A stretch of 64,000 nucleotides of DNA from an uncultured delta proteobacterium (GCA_963727445.1 CAVSGI010000012.1:64001-128000); one strand, 5' to 3'; numbered from the stretch's first letter, positions 31,198-38,645 are shown. Numbers and translations: made by a program. The notes: generated from the sequence alone by a model not told the origin.

Positions 31198-32043
31198 ATG
31201 CGTGCGGGTCTCCTGATCGTCTCGCTTGTCGCCTCGTCCCTGGCGCTCTCCTCCGTCGCCAGCGCGCAGAACGGTAACAACCCGCTCATCCAACAGGGCC
31301 AGGAGCTCTACGACGAGCTTCGCTACGAGGAGGCGCTTCAGACGCTCTCGGCGGCGTTGGTGCGTGCGGGGAACACCGACCAGGACAAGGCCGTCATCTA
31401 CGAGCTGCTCTCGCTCACATACCTCGCCCTCGGTCGTGAGGAGGAGGCGGCGGGCGCTTATCGAAGCCTGTTGGCCCTCGACCCGGAGCACCAGCCCGGC
31501 GCGGACGTCTCTCCGCGCTTCCGCACCTTCTTCGCCACCGTGTACGAACAGTGGGTCGCGGACGGGCGCCCGGGCGGCCAACCGCCGGCGCCGGTCACCA
31601 TCCGCCATCGTTCGCCGCCGGAGTCGGAACGCGAGACCGAGATCCCGCTGACCGCCGAGGTCGACGATCCGAGCGGGCGCGTCGCGCGCCTGGTGCTCGC
31701 ATATCGCCAGGGCACCGACGACGTCTTCCGGCGCGTGGACACCGAGCGTCGCGAGGGCGTCTACCACGCCACCATTCCGGCCGAAGCCGTCGCGCCCCCG
31801 CTCGTCGAGTACTACTTCGAGGGGCTGGACGACACTGGCCTGCCCGTGGCTTCGCGCGGTGACGTGGCTGCGCCGCTCCGCGTCGCGGTGCCCGAGCCGG
31901 GCGGCAGCGTCTTCACCAAGTGGTGGTTCTGGGTCGCAGCCGTCGCCATCGTCGGAGCTGCCGTCTTGATTCCGTCGATCTACATCGCCAATCAATCAGG
32001 GAATGCGGCCGAGCAGGGCACATTCGTGATCTCGATCAGGTGA
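31198..32043 (+). CDS. secreted TPR protein with C-terminal membrane anchor
   Basis: Signal peptide, TPR helices (LALDPEH), beta domain with VEYY, and KWWFW TM segment. Confidence 0.75.
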   Translation: MRAGLLIVSLVASSLALSSVASAQNGNNPLIQQGQELYDELRYEEALQTLSAALVRAGNTDQDKAVIYELLSLTYLALGREEEAAGAYRSLLALDPEHQPGADVSPRFRTFFATVYEQWVADGRPGGQPPAPVTIRHRSPPESERETEIPLTAEVDDPSGRVARLVLAYRQGTDDVFRRVDTERREGVYHATIPAEAVAPPLVEYYFEGLDDTGLPVASRGDVAAPLRVAVPEPGGSVFTKWWFWVAAVAIVGAAVLIPSIYIANQSGNAAEQGTFVISIR

Positions 32044-32046
32044 ACG

Positions 32047-32215
32047 AAGCGCGATACCCGATGTGTGATCACAAAGCGGCCTTCGTGTTCAATTTGGGTC
32101 CCAGGGCGAGCGCCCCCGCAGGCCCCGACCGAGGAATACCAAAGGTATTTCGCAGGGAGGGGCCGAGGAGGTAAGCCGGCCTGGGGCCCAAAGTGGACAC
32201 GAAAGCGCGATACCC
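32047..32215. other. 156-bp structured insert at the 5' end of prmA bounded by a 13-bp direct repeat
   Basis: AAGCGCGATACCC at 32047-32059 and 32203-32215; imperfect 24-bp inverted repeat 32082-32105 with 32180-32203; nested inner stems. Confidence 0.75.
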
Positions 32216-33056
32216 ATACGTTCACGTCGACGTGCCTTCCGAGAGCGCGGAGGACGTCGCTGCGGAGCTGTGGGAGCTGGGGGCCGAAGGCGTCGAGACG
32301 CGAGACGCGGGCACCATGAGCGGCCCCGACGCCGAGGGCCTGGTCACGTTGGTGGCGTACGTCTCCGAGGAGGCGCGGGCCGAAGCGCTGGCGCAAGAGC
32401 TGGGCCCCCGCTTTGCCGCGCGGGTCGAGATCGTGGTCGGCGATGCGTGGCGCGATCAGTGGAAGGCCTTCTTCAAGCCGCTGCGCGTGGGCGCGCGGCT
32501 CGTGGTCCGTCCCTCCTGGGAAGAGGTGAAGGTTCGCGACGGCGAGATCGTGCTGACCATCGACCCGGGACGCGCGTTCGGTAGCGGCATCCACGAGACG
32601 ACCAAGCTCGTCCTCCGGGAGATCGATCGACGTGTCCGCGGCGGCGAGCGCGTCCTCGACGTCGGCGCCGGTAGCGGGATCCTCTCGATCGCGGCGGCGC
32701 TCCTCGGCGCCTCCTCGGTGCGCGCCGTCGACAACGATCCCGACACGGTCGCGGTCGTTCATCAAAACGCCGAAGCGAACGGTGTCGCCGCCCTCATCAC
32801 CGCCGACGCGATGCCCATCGCCGAGGTGAAGGGCACCTACCCGCTCGTCCTCGCCAACATCGAGGCGACGGTGCTCGAGGCACTCGCCGAGCCGATCGCG
32901 GCGCACGTGGAGCCGGGGGGCACGCTGATCCTCAGCGGCATCCTGCGCCCGCAACTCTCGAAGGTGGTGGCGGCGTACGCGGGATTCGAGCACCAGCTCA
33001 CGGGGGCCGACGGGGAGTGGGTGGCGGCGATCCTGCATCGTCCCGAGGACACGTGA
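32193..33056 (+). CDS. prmA: 50S ribosomal protein L11 methyltransferase
   Basis: W...WK.FF.P, IDPGRAFGSGIHETT, VLDVGAGSGILSI, LANI and LILSGIL. Confidence 0.95.
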   Translation: MDTKARYPYVHVDVPSESAEDVAAELWELGAEGVETRDAGTMSGPDAEGLVTLVAYVSEEARAEALAQELGPRFAARVEIVVGDAWRDQWKAFFKPLRVGARLVVRPSWEEVKVRDGEIVLTIDPGRAFGSGIHETTKLVLREIDRRVRGGERVLDVGAGSGILSIAAALLGASSVRAVDNDPDTVAVVHQNAEANGVAALITADAMPIAEVKGTYPLVLANIEATVLEALAEPIAAHVEPGGTLILSGILRPQLSKVVAAYAGFEHQLTGADGEWVAAILHRPEDT

Positions 33057-33790
33057 GCGAAGGGCCGCGCCACCGATTCTTCGTCGAGGCTCTCCCCGAG
33101 GAAGGTGGCGTGATCGAGCCCTCGTCGGAAGTCGCCCGGCACGTGCGCGTCCTGCGCCTCGAGGTCGGTGAGGAGGTGATGCTCTTCGACGGGAGCGGCC
33201 GTGAGGCGAGGGCACACATCGAGGCCCTCACGCCCCTGCGCCTCGCGGCTTCGGTGCCGACCGTCGCCGCCGCCGACCGGCCCGAGATCCACCTGATCCA
33301 GGCGATGCCCAAAGGCAAGAAGCTCGACGCGATCGTCCGGATGAGCACCGAGCTGGGCGTCGACGCCATCCACCTGGCGATCACCGAGCGCGCCATCAGC
33401 CGCCCCGAAGGGTCGAAGGCCGAGGCGAAGATCACACGGCTCGAGAAGATCGCGCGCGAAGCGAGCCGTCAGGCGCGGCGCCGCACGACGCCCTCTCTCG
33501 TCGCCCCAGCCCCCCTCGGCGAGGTGATCGCACGCGCGAAATCGACCGACAAACGCCTCGTTTTCTGGGAAGAAGCGGAAGACTCCCGCTTGCCTCCCAG
33601 CCTGAGCGACGCGTCGCGCGTGTGGGTCCTCGTAGGGCCCGAGGGGGGATTGTCGCACACCGAGGTGGGCCCGCTGCAACAAAGCGGGTGGGTCAGCGTA
33701 CGGCTCGGAGCGACCATCCTGCGTGTCGAAACGGCGTCCCCGACCGCCCTCGCGCTGGTCCTTTATCGGGCCGGTCGTTTCCGCCGATGA
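33053..33790 (+). CDS. rsmE: 16S rRNA m3U1498 methyltransferase
   Basis: H.RVLRL, TELGV, EASRQ, VGPEGG and LG..ILRVETA; GTGA overlap with prmA. Confidence 0.95.
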   Translation: MSEGPRHRFFVEALPEEGGVIEPSSEVARHVRVLRLEVGEEVMLFDGSGREARAHIEALTPLRLAASVPTVAAADRPEIHLIQAMPKGKKLDAIVRMSTELGVDAIHLAITERAISRPEGSKAEAKITRLEKIAREASRQARRRTTPSLVAPAPLGEVIARAKSTDKRLVFWEEAEDSRLPPSLSDASRVWVLVGPEGGLSHTEVGPLQQSGWVSVRLGATILRVETASPTALALVLYRAGRFRR

Positions 33791-33848
33791 GGGGATCAAT
33801 TCCTCGGGACCCTGTATAGTGAGAGTGACCGCTTCTGGGCGAGGACAC

Positions 33849-36800
33849 TTGGCGATAGCAGGGAAGTCTACAGGTTGGTGGGCGTGGCGATCGGGCGCAC
33901 TCGTGGTGCTCACGCTCCTCTCTTCCTGCGTGACGCAGCAGTGCCCACCCGACGGGGGAGGTGGGATCTTCTGCCTCGATCCCGGTGACACCTCCGTCGG
34001 TGAAGCGGGCGACACGAGTCCCTGCGTCGAGGGCGCGACATGCACGCCCGCGAACCCGTGTCAGGAGGGGACCTGGAGTTGCTCCGGCACACCCACCTGC
34101 GTTGCCGGCGCGACATTGCCGGAAGGAGCGCCGTGCGACGTCGGCCTCGCTTGCGATGCCGCGGGCAGCTGCTCGGTGTGCACGCCCGATGTGACCTGCG
34201 ACACCGGCAACCCGTGCTCGGCGGGCATCATCGACTGCGGCTCCGGCATGCCGGTGTGTCGCATGGTCAGCGATGCGCCTTCGGGCACGCCATGTGGAAC
34301 CACCGGAACGTGCAACGGCGGCATCTGCAGCGAATGTCTGCCGGGCACTACCTGCGACACGGGTGATCCCTGCACCACCGGCTCCGTGGACTGCTCCACG
34401 GGAACGCAGGTTTGTAACGCGACCGACAATCTGCCGACGGGCACGGGCTGCGGTGGTGGTCTCGCATGCTCCACCACCGGATGCGACACATGTGTTCAGG
34501 GCGCGACCTGCGACACCGGCGATCCCTGCAGCAACGGTCAATACGACTGCGGCGCGTCGATGCCCGTGTGCATCACCACTTCCGATGTGCCCGTCGGTAC
34601 GCCGTGCGGAACGGCGGGCCTGTGCGGTGCCGACGGCTGCTCGGAGTGCATCGCGGGAACCAGTTGTGACACCGGAAATCCCTGCACGATGGGCACCCGC
34701 GATTGCTCGACCGGCGGCAGCGGCACCTGCAACTCGTCTGCGGATCTGCCCACCGGAACGCGCTGCGGCGTCGGCTTGGCGTGCGACGGTTCGGGCGGCT
34801 GCACGGTCTGCGTGCCCGGTGAGGACTGCGTGACCCCCGGCACCTGCGACGCGGGCACCATCAGCTGCGCGACCGGTGATCCGGTGTGCACCGGCGGCGG
34901 CACCGCGCCCGCAGGTACGGTGTGTCGTCCCTCCCTCGGTCCGTGCGACGCAGAGGAGACCTGCAGCGGCAGCAGCACCACCTGCCCGGCCGATGCGCTC
35001 GTCGCTGCGGGCGGCACCTGTCGTCCGCCGACCTCCGACTGCGACATCGAGGAGCAGTGCGACGGTGCGCTGGCGACGTGCCCCCCCGACACCTTCGATC
35101 CCTCGGGGACGGCGTGTGCGGGCGGCGGCACCTGCGACGGCCTCGGCATGTGCATCACCGTCTGCGTCGACGGCGCGCCCTGCAGTACGGGCAACCTCTG
35201 CGAGATCGGAACCATCGACTGCAGCGGTGCGTCTCCGGTCTGTGTACCGGGCGGTGTTCAGCCGGCGGGCACGAGCTGTCGCGCGCCGCGCGACATCTGT
35301 GACACCGAAGAGGTTTGCGACGGCACCTCGATCAGCTGCCCGCCAGACGGCTTCGAGCCCGCGGGCACCACGTGTCCCGGCGGAACGTGCTCCGGTCTCG
35401 GTCGCTGCATCGTGGGCTGCGACGCGTCGCTGCCCTGCGACACGGGCAACCCGTGCGAGCAGGGGATGATCGACTGCACCAGCGGCGCGCCGGTGTGCAC
35501 CGCGGTCGGTGCGCAGCCGGCGGGGACCGTCTGTCGGCCCAGCGCGGGCGCCTGCGATACGCAGGAGGTCTGCGACGGTGCCAGCATGGCGTGTCCGGCC
35601 GACTCGCTGACGATGGCCGGCACCGAGTGCCGCGCGGTGGCCGGGCCCTGCGACACCGCCGAGGTCTGCGACGGCGTCTCGGGTGCGTGTCCAGGCGACT
35701 CCTTCGTCAGCATGGGCACCGAGTGTCGCGCCTCGAGCGGCGAGTGTGATGCGGCCGAGGCCTGCACGGGCGCCGCCGCATCCTGTCCCGCCGACGTGCC
35801 CGCCGTCAGCGGTACGCCGTGCACCGGCGGTAGCTGCGACGGCAGCGGTAGCTGCGTCATCGGCTGCTTTGCCGGGACGCCCTGCTCCATCGGTGACGCC
35901 TGCGAGCTCGGGGTGATCGATTGCACCACCGGCGCCGCCGTCTGCGTGTCGGCGGGGCCGGCGCCCGCGGGCACCGAGTGCCGCGCCTCCACTGGCGTGT
36001 GCGACGCTGCGGAGGTCTGCGACGGCGTGGCTACCGTCTGCCCGGTGGCGCGCTTCGAGCCCTCGGGCACCATCTGCCGGCCCGCTGCGGGCCCCTGCGA
36101 CACGCCGGAGACCTGCACCGGCTTCGCCGCCACCTGTCCCACCGACACCCTCTCCGCGGCGGGCACCACCTGTCGTCCCTCGGTCGGCCCATGCGACGTG
36201 GAAGAGCAGTGCACGGGCGGCACGGTCACCTGCCCGACCGACGGCTTCGTCACCGGCGGCACCGAGTGCCGCGCGTCGGCGGGCGCTTGCGACATCGCGG
36301 AGCAGTGCACCGGCTCGGGCCCGCTCTGTCCGGTGGACAGCTTCGTGGCAAGCGGCACCGAGTGCCGTGCCTCGGCGGGTGTATGCGACCCGGCCGAGCA
36401 GTGCACCGGCGCCGACCCGGCCTGCCCGGCCGACAGCCTCGAGCCCGCCACCACCGTCTGTCGCGCAGGTGCCGGACCTTGCGACTCGCCCGAGCTCTGC
36501 ACTGGCGCCTCCGTCGACTGTCCGACGGACGTCCTGATGGCGGCCGGTACGACCTGTCGTCCGGTGGCGGGCGTGTGCGACGTCGAAGAGCAGTGCACCG
36601 GCGTGGACGTGACGTGTCCGATGGACAACTTCATGCCGTCCTCGACCACCTGCCGTGCATCGGCTGGCATCTGCGACATCGCCGAGAACTGCACCGGCAC
36701 CGGCCCGCTCTGTCCGGGCGACAGCTTCGTGCCGTCGGGCACCGAGTGTCGCGCGTCGGCGGGCGTCTGCGACCCGGCCGAGCAGTGCACCGGCTCCGCG

Positions 36801-38645
36801 GCGGCTTGCCCGGCGGATGCGCGCGAGCCCCCGACGACCGTCTGCCGCGCGTCGGCGGGCGTGTGCGACCCGGCCGAGCTCTGCGACGGCACCAGCGTGG
36901 CCTGTCCCGCCGACATGCTGTCGCCTTCGGGCACGACCTGTCGTCCGGTGGCGGGCGTGTGCGACGTCGAGGAGCAGTGCACCGGCGTGGACGTGACCTG
37001 CCCGGCGGACAACTTCATGCCCGCGTCGACCACGTGTCGTGCGTCGGCGGGCATCTGCGACGTCGCCGAGAACTGCACGGGCACCGGCCCGCTCTGCCCC
37101 GGCGACAGCTTCGTGGCGGCGGGCACCGAGTGCCGGGCGTCGGCGGGCATCTGCGATCCGGCCGAGCAGTGCACCGGCTCGGCCGCGGCGTGCCCGCCGG
37201 ATGCACGTGAGCCGCCGACCACGGTCTGCCGCGCGTCGGCGGGCGTGTGCGACCCGGCCGAGCTCTGCGACGGGACCAGCGTCAACTGTCCGGCGGACGC
37301 GCTGTCGCCCGCAGGCACGACCTGTCGTCCGGTGGCGGGCGTGTGCGACGTCGAGGAGCAGTGCACCGGCGGCAGCGTCAACTGCCCGGCGGACAACTTC
37401 ATGCCCTCGTCCACGACCTGTCGTGCGTCGGCGGGCATCTGCGACGTGGCCGAGAACTGCACGGGAACTGGCCCGCTCTGTCCCGGCGACAGCTTCCAGC
37501 CCTCCTCCACCGTCTGTCGTGCGTCGGCGGGCATCTGCGATCTCACCGAGAACTGCACCGGATCGTCGGCGCCGTGCCCGCCCGACAGCTTCCGCCCATC
37601 CTCCTTCGTCTGTCGCGCGTCAGCGGGCGTGTGCGACCCGGCCGAGCTCTGCACCGGCTCCACGGCTCCGTGCCCTGGTGACGTGCTCTCGCCGGCGGGC
37701 ACCACCTGTCGTCCGGTCGCCGGCGTCTGCGACGTCGAAGAGCAGTGCACCGGCGGCAGCGTCAACTGCCCGGCCGACAACTTCATGCCCTCGTCCACCA
37801 CCTGCCGCGCGTCGGCCGGCGTGTGCGACATCGCCGAGAACTGCACGGGCTCGGGCCCCCTCTGTCCGGCCAACCTCTTCGTGTCCTCTGCGACCGTCTG
37901 TCGCCCCTCGGCGGGCGTTTGCGACCCGGCGGAGAACTGCACCGGCAGCTCCGCGCCATGTCCTTCGGACGCCAAGTACGGCGGCTCGACCGTGTGCCGC
38001 GCCTCGGCGGGCGTGTGCGACATTCAGGAGGTCTGCGACGGCGTCAGCAACGGCTGTCCTGCCAACTCCTTCCAGGTCGGCACCACCTGTCGCGCGTCGG
38101 CGGGCGTGTGCGACATCGCCGAGACCTGCCCTGGTGGCACCGCGGCGTGTCCCCCCGACAACTTCCTCGGTACCGGCAGCGTCTGCCGCGCAGCGGTCGG
38201 CAGCTGCGACCAAGCCGAGGTGTGTCCCGGCACCGGGCCGAACTGCCCGGCGGACGTCTGCGCGCCCAACAGCGGCGGTGGCGCCCTCGGGACCATCAAC
38301 ACCGGCGGCAGCGGCAGCCGCATGGGCTGCGTCCAGCCCGGCTCGTCCGTGGGCTTCTCAATCAACTTCCCGAACGACCGCTATCTGGGTGCCCTTCCCG
38401 CGACGCCCGGAACGCCCGGAACGGGCACGCCTTCGATGAGCGTCAGCGGCGCCAACATGAAGCTCTCCGGCGTCCCGGGCTGCGGTAACTCCGACAGCTA
38501 CAGTTTCGCCGACAGCAACGTCAACAGCGGCAACCGCGCGTGGTCCACGGAGGGCACCGCTTGGCCCGGCAGCTTCAGCTTCTCGGTGGTCAACACGGGC
38601 GGCACCTGCTCGACCGCGGGCTACTCGCTCAGCTTCAGTCGCTGA
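33849..38645 (+). CDS. giant Cys-rich lipoprotein with about 30 disintegrin-like 32-aa repeats
   Basis: Lipobox LSS-C; several CDTGNPC modules, then CRxxxGxCDxxExCxGxxxxCPxD repeats; non-repeat beta-rich C-terminus. Start uncertain. Confidence 0.85.
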   Translation: MAIAGKSTGWWAWRSGALVVLTLLSSCVTQQCPPDGGGGIFCLDPGDTSVGEAGDTSPCVEGATCTPANPCQEGTWSCSGTPTCVAGATLPEGAPCDVGLACDAAGSCSVCTPDVTCDTGNPCSAGIIDCGSGMPVCRMVSDAPSGTPCGTTGTCNGGICSECLPGTTCDTGDPCTTGSVDCSTGTQVCNATDNLPTGTGCGGGLACSTTGCDTCVQGATCDTGDPCSNGQYDCGASMPVCITTSDVPVGTPCGTAGLCGADGCSECIAGTSCDTGNPCTMGTRDCSTGGSGTCNSSADLPTGTRCGVGLACDGSGGCTVCVPGEDCVTPGTCDAGTISCATGDPVCTGGGTAPAGTVCRPSLGPCDAEETCSGSSTTCPADALVAAGGTCRPPTSDCDIEEQCDGALATCPPDTFDPSGTACAGGGTCDGLGMCITVCVDGAPCSTGNLCEIGTIDCSGASPVCVPGGVQPAGTSCRAPRDICDTEEVCDGTSISCPPDGFEPAGTTCPGGTCSGLGRCIVGCDASLPCDTGNPCEQGMIDCTSGAPVCTAVGAQPAGTVCRPSAGACDTQEVCDGASMACPADSLTMAGTECRAVAGPCDTAEVCDGVSGACPGDSFVSMGTECRASSGECDAAEACTGAAASCPADVPAVSGTPCTGGSCDGSGSCVIGCFAGTPCSIGDACELGVIDCTTGAAVCVSAGPAPAGTECRASTGVCDAAEVCDGVATVCPVARFEPSGTICRPAAGPCDTPETCTGFAATCPTDTLSAAGTTCRPSVGPCDVEEQCTGGTVTCPTDGFVTGGTECRASAGACDIAEQCTGSGPLCPVDSFVASGTECRASAGVCDPAEQCTGADPACPADSLEPATTVCRAGAGPCDSPELCTGASVDCPTDVLMAAGTTCRPVAGVCDVEEQCTGVDVTCPMDNFMPSSTTCRASAGICDIAENCTGTGPLCPGDSFVPSGTECRASAGVCDPAEQCTGSAAACPADAREPPTTVCRASAGVCDPAELCDGTSVACPADMLSPSGTTCRPVAGVCDVEEQCTGVDVTCPADNFMPASTTCRASAGICDVAENCTGTGPLCPGDSFVAAGTECRASAGICDPAEQCTGSAAACPPDAREPPTTVCRASAGVCDPAELCDGTSVNCPADALSPAGTTCRPVAGVCDVEEQCTGGSVNCPADNFMPSSTTCRASAGICDVAENCTGTGPLCPGDSFQPSSTVCRASAGICDLTENCTGSSAPCPPDSFRPSSFVCRASAGVCDPAELCTGSTAPCPGDVLSPAGTTCRPVAGVCDVEEQCTGGSVNCPADNFMPSSTTCRASAGVCDIAENCTGSGPLCPANLFVSSATVCRPSAGVCDPAENCTGSSAPCPSDAKYGGSTVCRASAGVCDIQEVCDGVSNGCPANSFQVGTTCRASAGVCDIAETCPGGTAACPPDNFLGTGSVCRAAVGSCDQAEVCPGTGPNCPADVCAPNSGGGALGTINTGGSGSRMGCVQPGSSVGFSINFPNDRYLGALPATPGTPGTGTPSMSVSGANMKLSGVPGCGNSDSYSFADSNVNSGNRAWSTEGTAWPGSFSFSVVNTGGTCSTAGYSLSFSR
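36171..38090 (+). repeat. higher-order coding repeat, 384-bp period (four 96-bp units)
   Basis: TGTCGTCC... (CRP...CDVEEQC) recurs at 36171, 36555, 36939, 37323 and 37707. Confidence 0.9.

Follow-up and report, generated by a model that had tools for sequence, protein, structure and literature searches.

A probable palindromic repeat insertion at the start of prmA and the dispersed, structured family to which it belongs

The window analysed here is a stretch of 64,000 nucleotides from the 9.47-Mb genome of an uncultured delta proteobacterium (G000, the source genome, which holds the window; a genome of the same genus is referred to as G001, and L-numbers designate individual loci), and the features described at this locus lie on its plus strand. 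A TPR-containing gene, assigned through weak TPR Pfam matches (31198..32043), precedes prmA, the gene for the L11 methyltransferase, which is intact and encodes 287 aa (32193..33056); its original naming was upheld by a match to PF06325 (E 4.9e-66). The prmA stop is overlapped by a gene for an RsmE-type RNA methyltransferase (33053..33790; PF04452, PF20260), directly after which an ORF of at most 1640 aa (window 33723-38645, plus strand) contains many near-identical cysteine-rich repeats. The TGA of the TPR gene and the ancestral prmA start overlap as GTGA (32040-32043). From this ancestral start the frame reads (V/M)NEARYP and then 37 codons more before a TAA (32172-32174), giving a 44-codon uORF (32040..32174) that is defined by sequence and translation, is presumably translated and seems to have been created by an insertion, as the ancestral start (NEARYP) runs into an element until the element's own TAA.

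The original prediction had drawn attention to a 13-mer at 32047-32059 and again at 32203-32215, 156 bp apart, and to a set of accompanying signals, namely the GTGA, a 10-bp palindrome, an AGGAGG, the in-frame TAA and the GTG at 32193. All of these coordinates were confirmed, and the 13-mer has no third occurrence in the 9.47-Mb genome. While the repeat is present exactly, its sequence is best read as a likely duplication of 8 bp plus 5 bp of the element's own end that resemble the target. The best boundaries on this reading are those of a 148-bp element (32060..32207) and an 8-bp target-site duplication, uncertain by 1-2 nt. The left copy of the duplication (32052..32059, boundary ±1-2 nt) is placed in a register shared with sister-subtype copies, and the right copy (32208..32215) forms the prmA codons R-Y-P. 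The element consists of an unpaired left leader of ~18 nt (32060..32077), which contains a conserved GATC and is shared by a copy on contig C13 of G000, L069 and L113, and of a rod of ~130 nt. A left outer arm of subtype B (32078..32106) and its partner, the right outer arm (32178..32207), enclose a family-wide core of ~74 nt (32107..32180) with short covarying helices, fixed bulges and mismatches and an apical hairpin. The 10-bp palindrome, TGTGATCACA (32064-32073), is present in the window copy, although sister copies keep only its GATC. The AGGAGGT and the TAA both lie inside the family-wide core, and the AGGAGG (32166-32171), described earlier as too far from the GTG for normal initiation, is indeed present; what had been overlooked is a CTG at 32181, in the prmA frame and 8-9 nt past AGGAGG(T). 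The right arm is the source of this CTG and of the GTG at 32193, and the element thus supplies the first five prmA codons; as such, the proposal of a rebuilt gene start was borne out, with prmA itself intact.

The rod fold that had been proposed is real (-101.7 kcal/mol, z -8.26, with 0 of 200 shuffles equally stable), and the window element, with a GC of 0.66, folds at -90.4 kcal/mol (z -9.6) on the plus strand and at -75.7 kcal/mol (z -6.4) on the minus strand. The suggested search for stem covariation gave a positive answer across the family copies, with both-side changes in 30 of 40 pairs among 51 chosen copies, counts that are inflated by related copies among the 51. In the same set, paired cells amounted to 94%, as compared to 38-42% with slid partners, and the paired columns held 142 G-T cells against 13 A-C cells. 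The same strand is the better folder in 47 of the 51 copies and at all 24 G000 loci. The invariance of the left half of the core in the alignment is there by construction, since the search pattern fixed the left half and left the right half free. The core keeps its fixed bulges, and the arms turn over with their structure conserved. An extra side hairpin of ~55 nt on the right strand of the rod, just past the core, resulting in a three-way junction, was observed at L175, L179, L180, L181, L084 and L096, and in copies with this hairpin the outer arms still pair.

The insert had been proposed to be a non-autonomous inserted element, and this was borne out by its membership in a dispersed, structured family, of which G000 has 34 copies at E < 1e-6 in 24 loci (profile of 44 rows). 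The BLAST of the insert against the genome that had been recommended did return matches, but at many places, so that the element is not specific to prmA; with the family at 24 G000 loci and at prmA in 0 of 28 relatives, the idea that prmA is its target was not sustained. Tandem clusters make up 5 of the 24 loci, tandem arrays in the family have units of 121-130 bp, internally deleted copies also occur, and the closest G000 relatives of the window copy match it at 89% over 112 nt. Beyond the source genome, which is included in each of the following counts, the family was present in 9 of 31 relatives, 15 of 201 genomes of the class (BLAST) and 18 of 121 genomes of the phylum (covariance model), sets that may overlap, and G001, G009 and G019 gave 26, 9 and 25 matches, respectively. 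Scanning the species collection with a sequence pattern yielded 97 stretches, 80 of them with flanks; 65 of these hold 69 full copies and the other 15 hold no full match. The copies from this collection are nearly all in records of Polyangiales, Myxococcota or Deltaproteobacteria, and viral contigs gave 0 matches to the family pattern. One record, L127, is titled Coxiellaceae and may be misbinned, because its context is myxobacterial. A copy at G000:C9:178900-179001 has a short gene of the same direction on each side, in what looks by eye like an operon for ribosomal proteins, and copies at L139, L145 and L151 are within a few hundred bases of tRNA, SRP RNA and 16S rRNA genes. The literature searched, in which few subscription journals were covered, yielded no myxobacterial report of the family.

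In most cases a copy directly adjoins the stop codon of an opposite-strand gene and folds better on the strand antisense to the mRNA of that gene. According to a codon-model gene caller, which is imperfect, an opposite-strand gene end adjoins the right arm at 22 of the 24 G000 loci; in 16 of those 22 the distance between the stop and a fixed anchor in the core is 24-32 nt, which places the stop at the rod end, and one further locus (G000:C21:174117-174320) abuts the 3' end of a tRNA-Ser gene likewise. Between co-directional genes, 14 of 15 loci are antisense (p 0.001, the tRNA locus being excluded). Among 64 scored loci from other genomes, the convergent stop lies 20-45 nt from the anchor in 45 and farther away in 9, whereas 8 face a 5' end and 2 are without a gene call. 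A rule based on replication strand was considered and rejected, since 17 of 24 loci lie opposite the leading-like strand, which is weaker than the gene-orientation rule, and the skews are weak. Among the G000 copies, the one in the window is alone in being oriented toward the start of a same-strand gene. By eye, a core-less sister copy (G000:C13:346992-347057) also appears to sit in a stop/start overlap, where the duplication and leader of the C13 copy give a new ATG to the next opposite-strand gene and hence a second rebuilt start.

An empty ancestral prmA start, which the original prediction had implied, was borne out by the alignment of relatives. Of 30 relatives searched, 28 provided the prmA locus, and the covariance model found the element at prmA in 0 of these 28, same-genus G001 included. 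Over 36 sources (28 prmA loci, 2 metagenome loci, 5 transposase or reverse transcriptase loci and the window) the window was the sole match to this model, and a metagenome scan for close prmA relatives returned just 2 distant loci. A homolog of the upstream gene lies directly 5' of prmA in 12 of the 28 relatives, and at L007, L011, L022 and L025 an RTGA stop/start overlap, a few residues and then RYP can be recognised by eye. The residues preceding RYP in the relatives' PrmA are freely variable, from ~2 to ~16. Given this variation, a new PrmA N-terminus of 5 or 9 residues requires no repair, and nothing has to be removed from the prmA message. The right junction of the insert is bridged by a 151-nt contig from an independent soil run (X3; depth 2, 2 differences), which covers 32131-32281. 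Four of six sequencing runs, at a coverage too thin to bear on excision, yielded no joints.

Sites differ between related genomes and are lineage-specific. Of the 26 G001 copies 20 were fetched, and an orthologous G000 flank was found for 18, with a copy there in 0 of 18; at 8 of these 18 sites both flanks are adjacent in G000, the stop position being the same in several as judged by eye. Sister copies of the window subtype have in common the right end and the left leader with its GATC. If the element is taken as 32060-32207, the 8-mers on its two sides agree at 8 of 8 positions for the window copy and L069 and at 6 of 8 for the G000:C13 copy and L113, in a register that was fixed once the first cases were known and whose neighbours score nearly equally; seven other subtype-B copies, partly truncated or tandem, gave 0-3 of 8. 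An exact flanking repeat of at least 8 bp is present in 8 of 77 single copies, the window included (3% expected, p 0.002), with some of the eight not at the element ends, and a general duplication across all copies was sought and not found. Target duplication is therefore likely for young copies, although unproven as a rule, and the still perfect duplication at prmA suggests that this insertion is young. Two candidate features were dismissed: a TTGGG motif at the left end (3 of 87, as compared to 1 of 87 in the control window) and the idea that type-A hairpins without a core served as targets already in place (a single match, unrelated, among the matches listed). Copies at L037, L038, L039, L041, L045, L059, L104, L110, L127 and L136 have a downstream flank that recurs in several genomes, one and the same flank for the first five of these loci, and their arms, of which the stop codon is a part, are fully compensated, which suggests long retention at one gene end.

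Taken together, we consider it very probable that a 148-bp non-autonomous palindromic repeat (YPAL/MITE-like) was inserted after prmA codon 7 by a cut-and-fill reaction with an 8-bp duplication, the latter arising from a staggered cut that a trans-acting transposase would have made. The window copy represents a rare sense-strand, gene-start insertion of an otherwise stop-anchored, antisense-folding family; its tolerance is explained by the R-Y-P codons that the duplication restored and by the in-frame starts within the right arm. The insert appears to be selfish-type DNA of an ordinary sort, from a family that has been little described, and not a splicing or hopping device, and a probably usable new prmA start arose by chance. 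With regard to prmA expression, the start at 32040 depends on coupling, as there is no Shine-Dalgarno signal. The GTG at 32193 has a weak Shine-Dalgarno-like GGGG tract 6 nt upstream (32183-32186, in the right outer arm) and an anti-SD pairing energy of -4.7 kcal/mol, while the CTG at 32181 has the strong AGGAGGT and -12.3 kcal/mol, the median over 4522 called genes being -2.4 kcal/mol; the predicted unpaired probability is 0.10 for the GTG and 0.22 for the CTG, as compared to 0.50 at the empty site. Through coupling to the upstream gene, ribosomes would translate the uORF and thereby open the rod, stop at the TAA (32172) and restart at the GTG or, possibly, the CTG, and PrmA would then have a new N-terminus. 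On this model it seems fairly probable that PrmA is still made by coupled re-initiation, most likely from the GTG, and with lower output. The rate excess of PrmA relative to its G001 ortholog is not significant (p 0.24-1.0, five outgroups); lineage-specific changes are slightly more numerous in PrmA than in the G001 protein with 4 of 5 outgroups, and the upstream gene shows the opposite trend, neither of which is significant.

The anatomy of the locus would also permit a domesticated, uORF-controlled translational switch that couples prmA to translation of the upstream gene, given the coupled uORF, the stop within the rod and the starts sequestered by stem pairing; the ribosome is what PrmA acts on, and the persistence of some copies at one site with compensated arms indicates that copies can be kept. 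However, the prmA of 28 of 28 relatives lacks the element, the perfect duplication speaks for a young insertion, and the switch lacks support because the Shine-Dalgarno-like motif and the TAA are found family-wide, mostly antisense to genes, so that we regard domestication as quite improbable. RNA splicing of the insert, or its bypassing by ribosomes from one matched codon to the other, had also been entertained in the original prediction. The ancestral frame is indeed regained when 156 nt are removed, and the two repeats come close to each other in the rod, but the same frame arithmetic follows from any target duplication, and no Rfam intron or ribozyme was matched (best E 4.9 in the window, nothing on the rods of 15 other loci). 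Sister copies lie outside ORFs and antisense, on the other strand. The bypass of T4 gene 60 has a stop directly after the take-off codon and a product that needs both ORFs; here the stop comes 37 codons past the first repeat and the N-termini before RYP are variable, which makes splicing or bypassing very unlikely. An attL/attR scar of a site-specific island targeting prmA would account for the fact that a conserved gene begins with a direct repeat of 13 bp, yet what lies between the two repeats is a palindrome present in many copies and not the remnant of an island, 5 of the 13 bp match the element end in sister copies, the 13-mer is confined to this site in the genome, and no element is at the site in 28 relatives within the fetched flanks. 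The scar thus fails as an explanation, the family being multi-locus and the relatives' prmA empty, and has a negligible likelihood. Finally, repeats can misjoin, and the left junction is bridged by no independent contig, but the local misassembly that had been named as a potential refutation is highly unlikely in view of the independent contig across the right junction, the divergence of this copy from its closest genome relatives (89% over 112 nt) and the duplication of sister copies in the same register.

For the enzyme that would have inserted the palindromic repeat at prmA, we searched the neighbourhoods of family copies and the known transposase loci. No transposase family was found among the matches listed for 106 flanking proteins (of 120 called, with 14 long ones excluded), G000's four PF01797 loci and its reverse transcriptase locus hold no family copy, and 8 PF01797 loci of relatives and L210 hold no rod. 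At L005 (G000:C1:31270-32754), which looks like a retron-type locus, two large genes and 200 nt of non-coding DNA come before the only reverse transcriptase gene (PF00078). A likeness to retron msDNA, a lead that comes from Nannocystis, was discarded, with no similarity to G000's local retron and no match in L005. IS-sized repeats exist in G000 according to self-BLAST, as do about 250 GGGGAC-ended repeats of two main sequence types. Y1/HUH transposase genes with GGGGAC-ended repeats on either side were observed at G000:C10:487653-488468, at G000:C9:567046-567537 and at L210 (G001:C30), where PF01797 failed to detect the G001 enzyme. A Y1/HUH transposase of the RAYT/TIRYT type might therefore move or shape the family as a REPIN-like composite, with the rod folding as single-stranded DNA. 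This is consistent with the one-strand folding, with a 28-nt repeat of G001 (67 matches) that brackets the Y1-type transposase gene of L210, two per side, and, by eye, with the same-strand occurrence of this repeat at a distance of 39-52 nt from the core in 10 of the 26 rods matched and with the resemblance of the outer arms of G001 and subtype-B copies to the repeat's end; in addition, G000 has two homologs of the L210 enzyme (46% and 41%). On the other hand, such a repeat lies within 300 nt at just 2 of 24 G000 loci and is absent by the window copy, neither PF01797 nor the L210 protein was matched in the rod-bearing G009 and G019 (9 and 25 matches), and the association may reflect one repeat inserted beside the other. 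HUH insertion of the IS200/605 type is not known to make a target duplication, and a role of such an enzyme is unlikely in our opinion.

Here we speculate, though we hold it to be doubtful, that the family represents a distinct mobile kind that lacks terminal inverted repeats, is recognised by its one-strand fold and is delivered to gene ends by a process linked to transcription or translation termination. If so, the recognised strand, antisense to the host mRNA, would be cDNA, antisense RNA or template-strand single-stranded DNA, the fixed bulges would serve as a binding code for the enzyme, and the family would span Myxococcota and Geobacter-like lineages, while at prmA the element would have gone off target and left the footprint of the reaction in place, namely the 8-bp duplication and the left leader. 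For the locus itself, the odd prmA start is explained as the mark left when a repeat inserted, which is a familiar sort of accident, and illustrates that a duplication and a rod together can mimic splicing or hopping. The strand rule, the stop-codon anchor and the missing transposase are worth following, and a covarying family with young copies makes both its spread and a structural constraint on the opposite strand testable.

In comparison with known repeats, the family resembles bacterial MITEs in the broad sense, being non-coding, <200 bp and multicopy, with a long stem-loop and filled and empty sites. Strictly defined MITEs carry the terminal inverted repeats of an autonomous IS; here the left end is an unpaired leader. 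In contrast to TA-type MITEs, as far as these are described in the sources available, there is no left terminal inverted repeat, and no IS with matching ends was identified. ERIC/IRU, Correia/NEMIS and RUP are likewise small, non-coding, intergenic hairpin repeats, and for ERIC the orientation relative to the mRNA also matters, according to the part of a review at hand (PMC2229807); unlike ERIC, Correia and RUP as portrayed there, the family is GC-rich (0.66) and has no TA termini or TA duplication. With REP, BIME and REPIN sequences and the TIRs of TIRYTs the family shares an intergenic location near stops and tandem clusters, yet it is far longer than REP (20-40 bp), with no GTAG foot noticed relative to the descriptions at hand (PMC3733652, PMC6006769), and in the loci tested no copy flanks a Y1 transposase gene, as a REPIN would. 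It is the GGGGAC-ended repeats of G000 that resemble TIRYT/TIR families, as far as those are presented in PMC3733652. Rickettsia palindromic elements also add residues to conserved proteins, probably neutrally, but are read through in frame in the review's account (PMC2229807), whereas the prmA element has an in-frame stop and gives 5-9 N-terminal codons; such a protein-adding insertion is the exception within our family.

Candidate relatives are 24 intergenic 'predicted short RNA elements' of Geobacter metallireducens, which are multicopy palindromes (Gmet_R1001-R1024, 111-116 nt; PMC2700814). Their 19-nt central palindrome is found exactly in L116 and L118 (2 of 153 loci), and although the window copy lacks the exact palindrome, its apical stem is covariant with it; the reverse strand of the rows in Fig. 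S1 of that paper shows the same order of core motifs by eye. The Geobacter elements therefore look like members of the same superfamily, as judged by eye. The accessible parts of PMC2700814 list them only as RNA elements without an assigned function. Four features go beyond what that listing gave, namely movement of the repeat, a likely target duplication of 8 bp, a tight anchor at stop codons and the preference for one strand. In its behaviour, the family is most readily compared to YPAL/RU-2 of Yersinia, which the accessible part of the review (PMC2229807) describes as elements of ~150-170 bp with a long stem-loop, duplications of 3-26 bp and filled and empty sites. Both have internal inverted repeats, lack TA ends and are not AT-rich; the target duplications of YPAL have a likely counterpart in young copies of our family, and co-transcription with upstream genes, as described for YPAL, would apply here as well (PMC2229807). 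They differ in that the duplication in our family is ~8 bp where seen, as opposed to 3-26 bp in YPAL (PMC2229807), and in the fixed core bulges, the turnover of the arms, the antisense-strand fold and the 121-130-bp tandem units that set our family apart from the published description of YPAL. As such, the family appears to work like YPAL/RU-2, to which it is likened by description and not by sequence.
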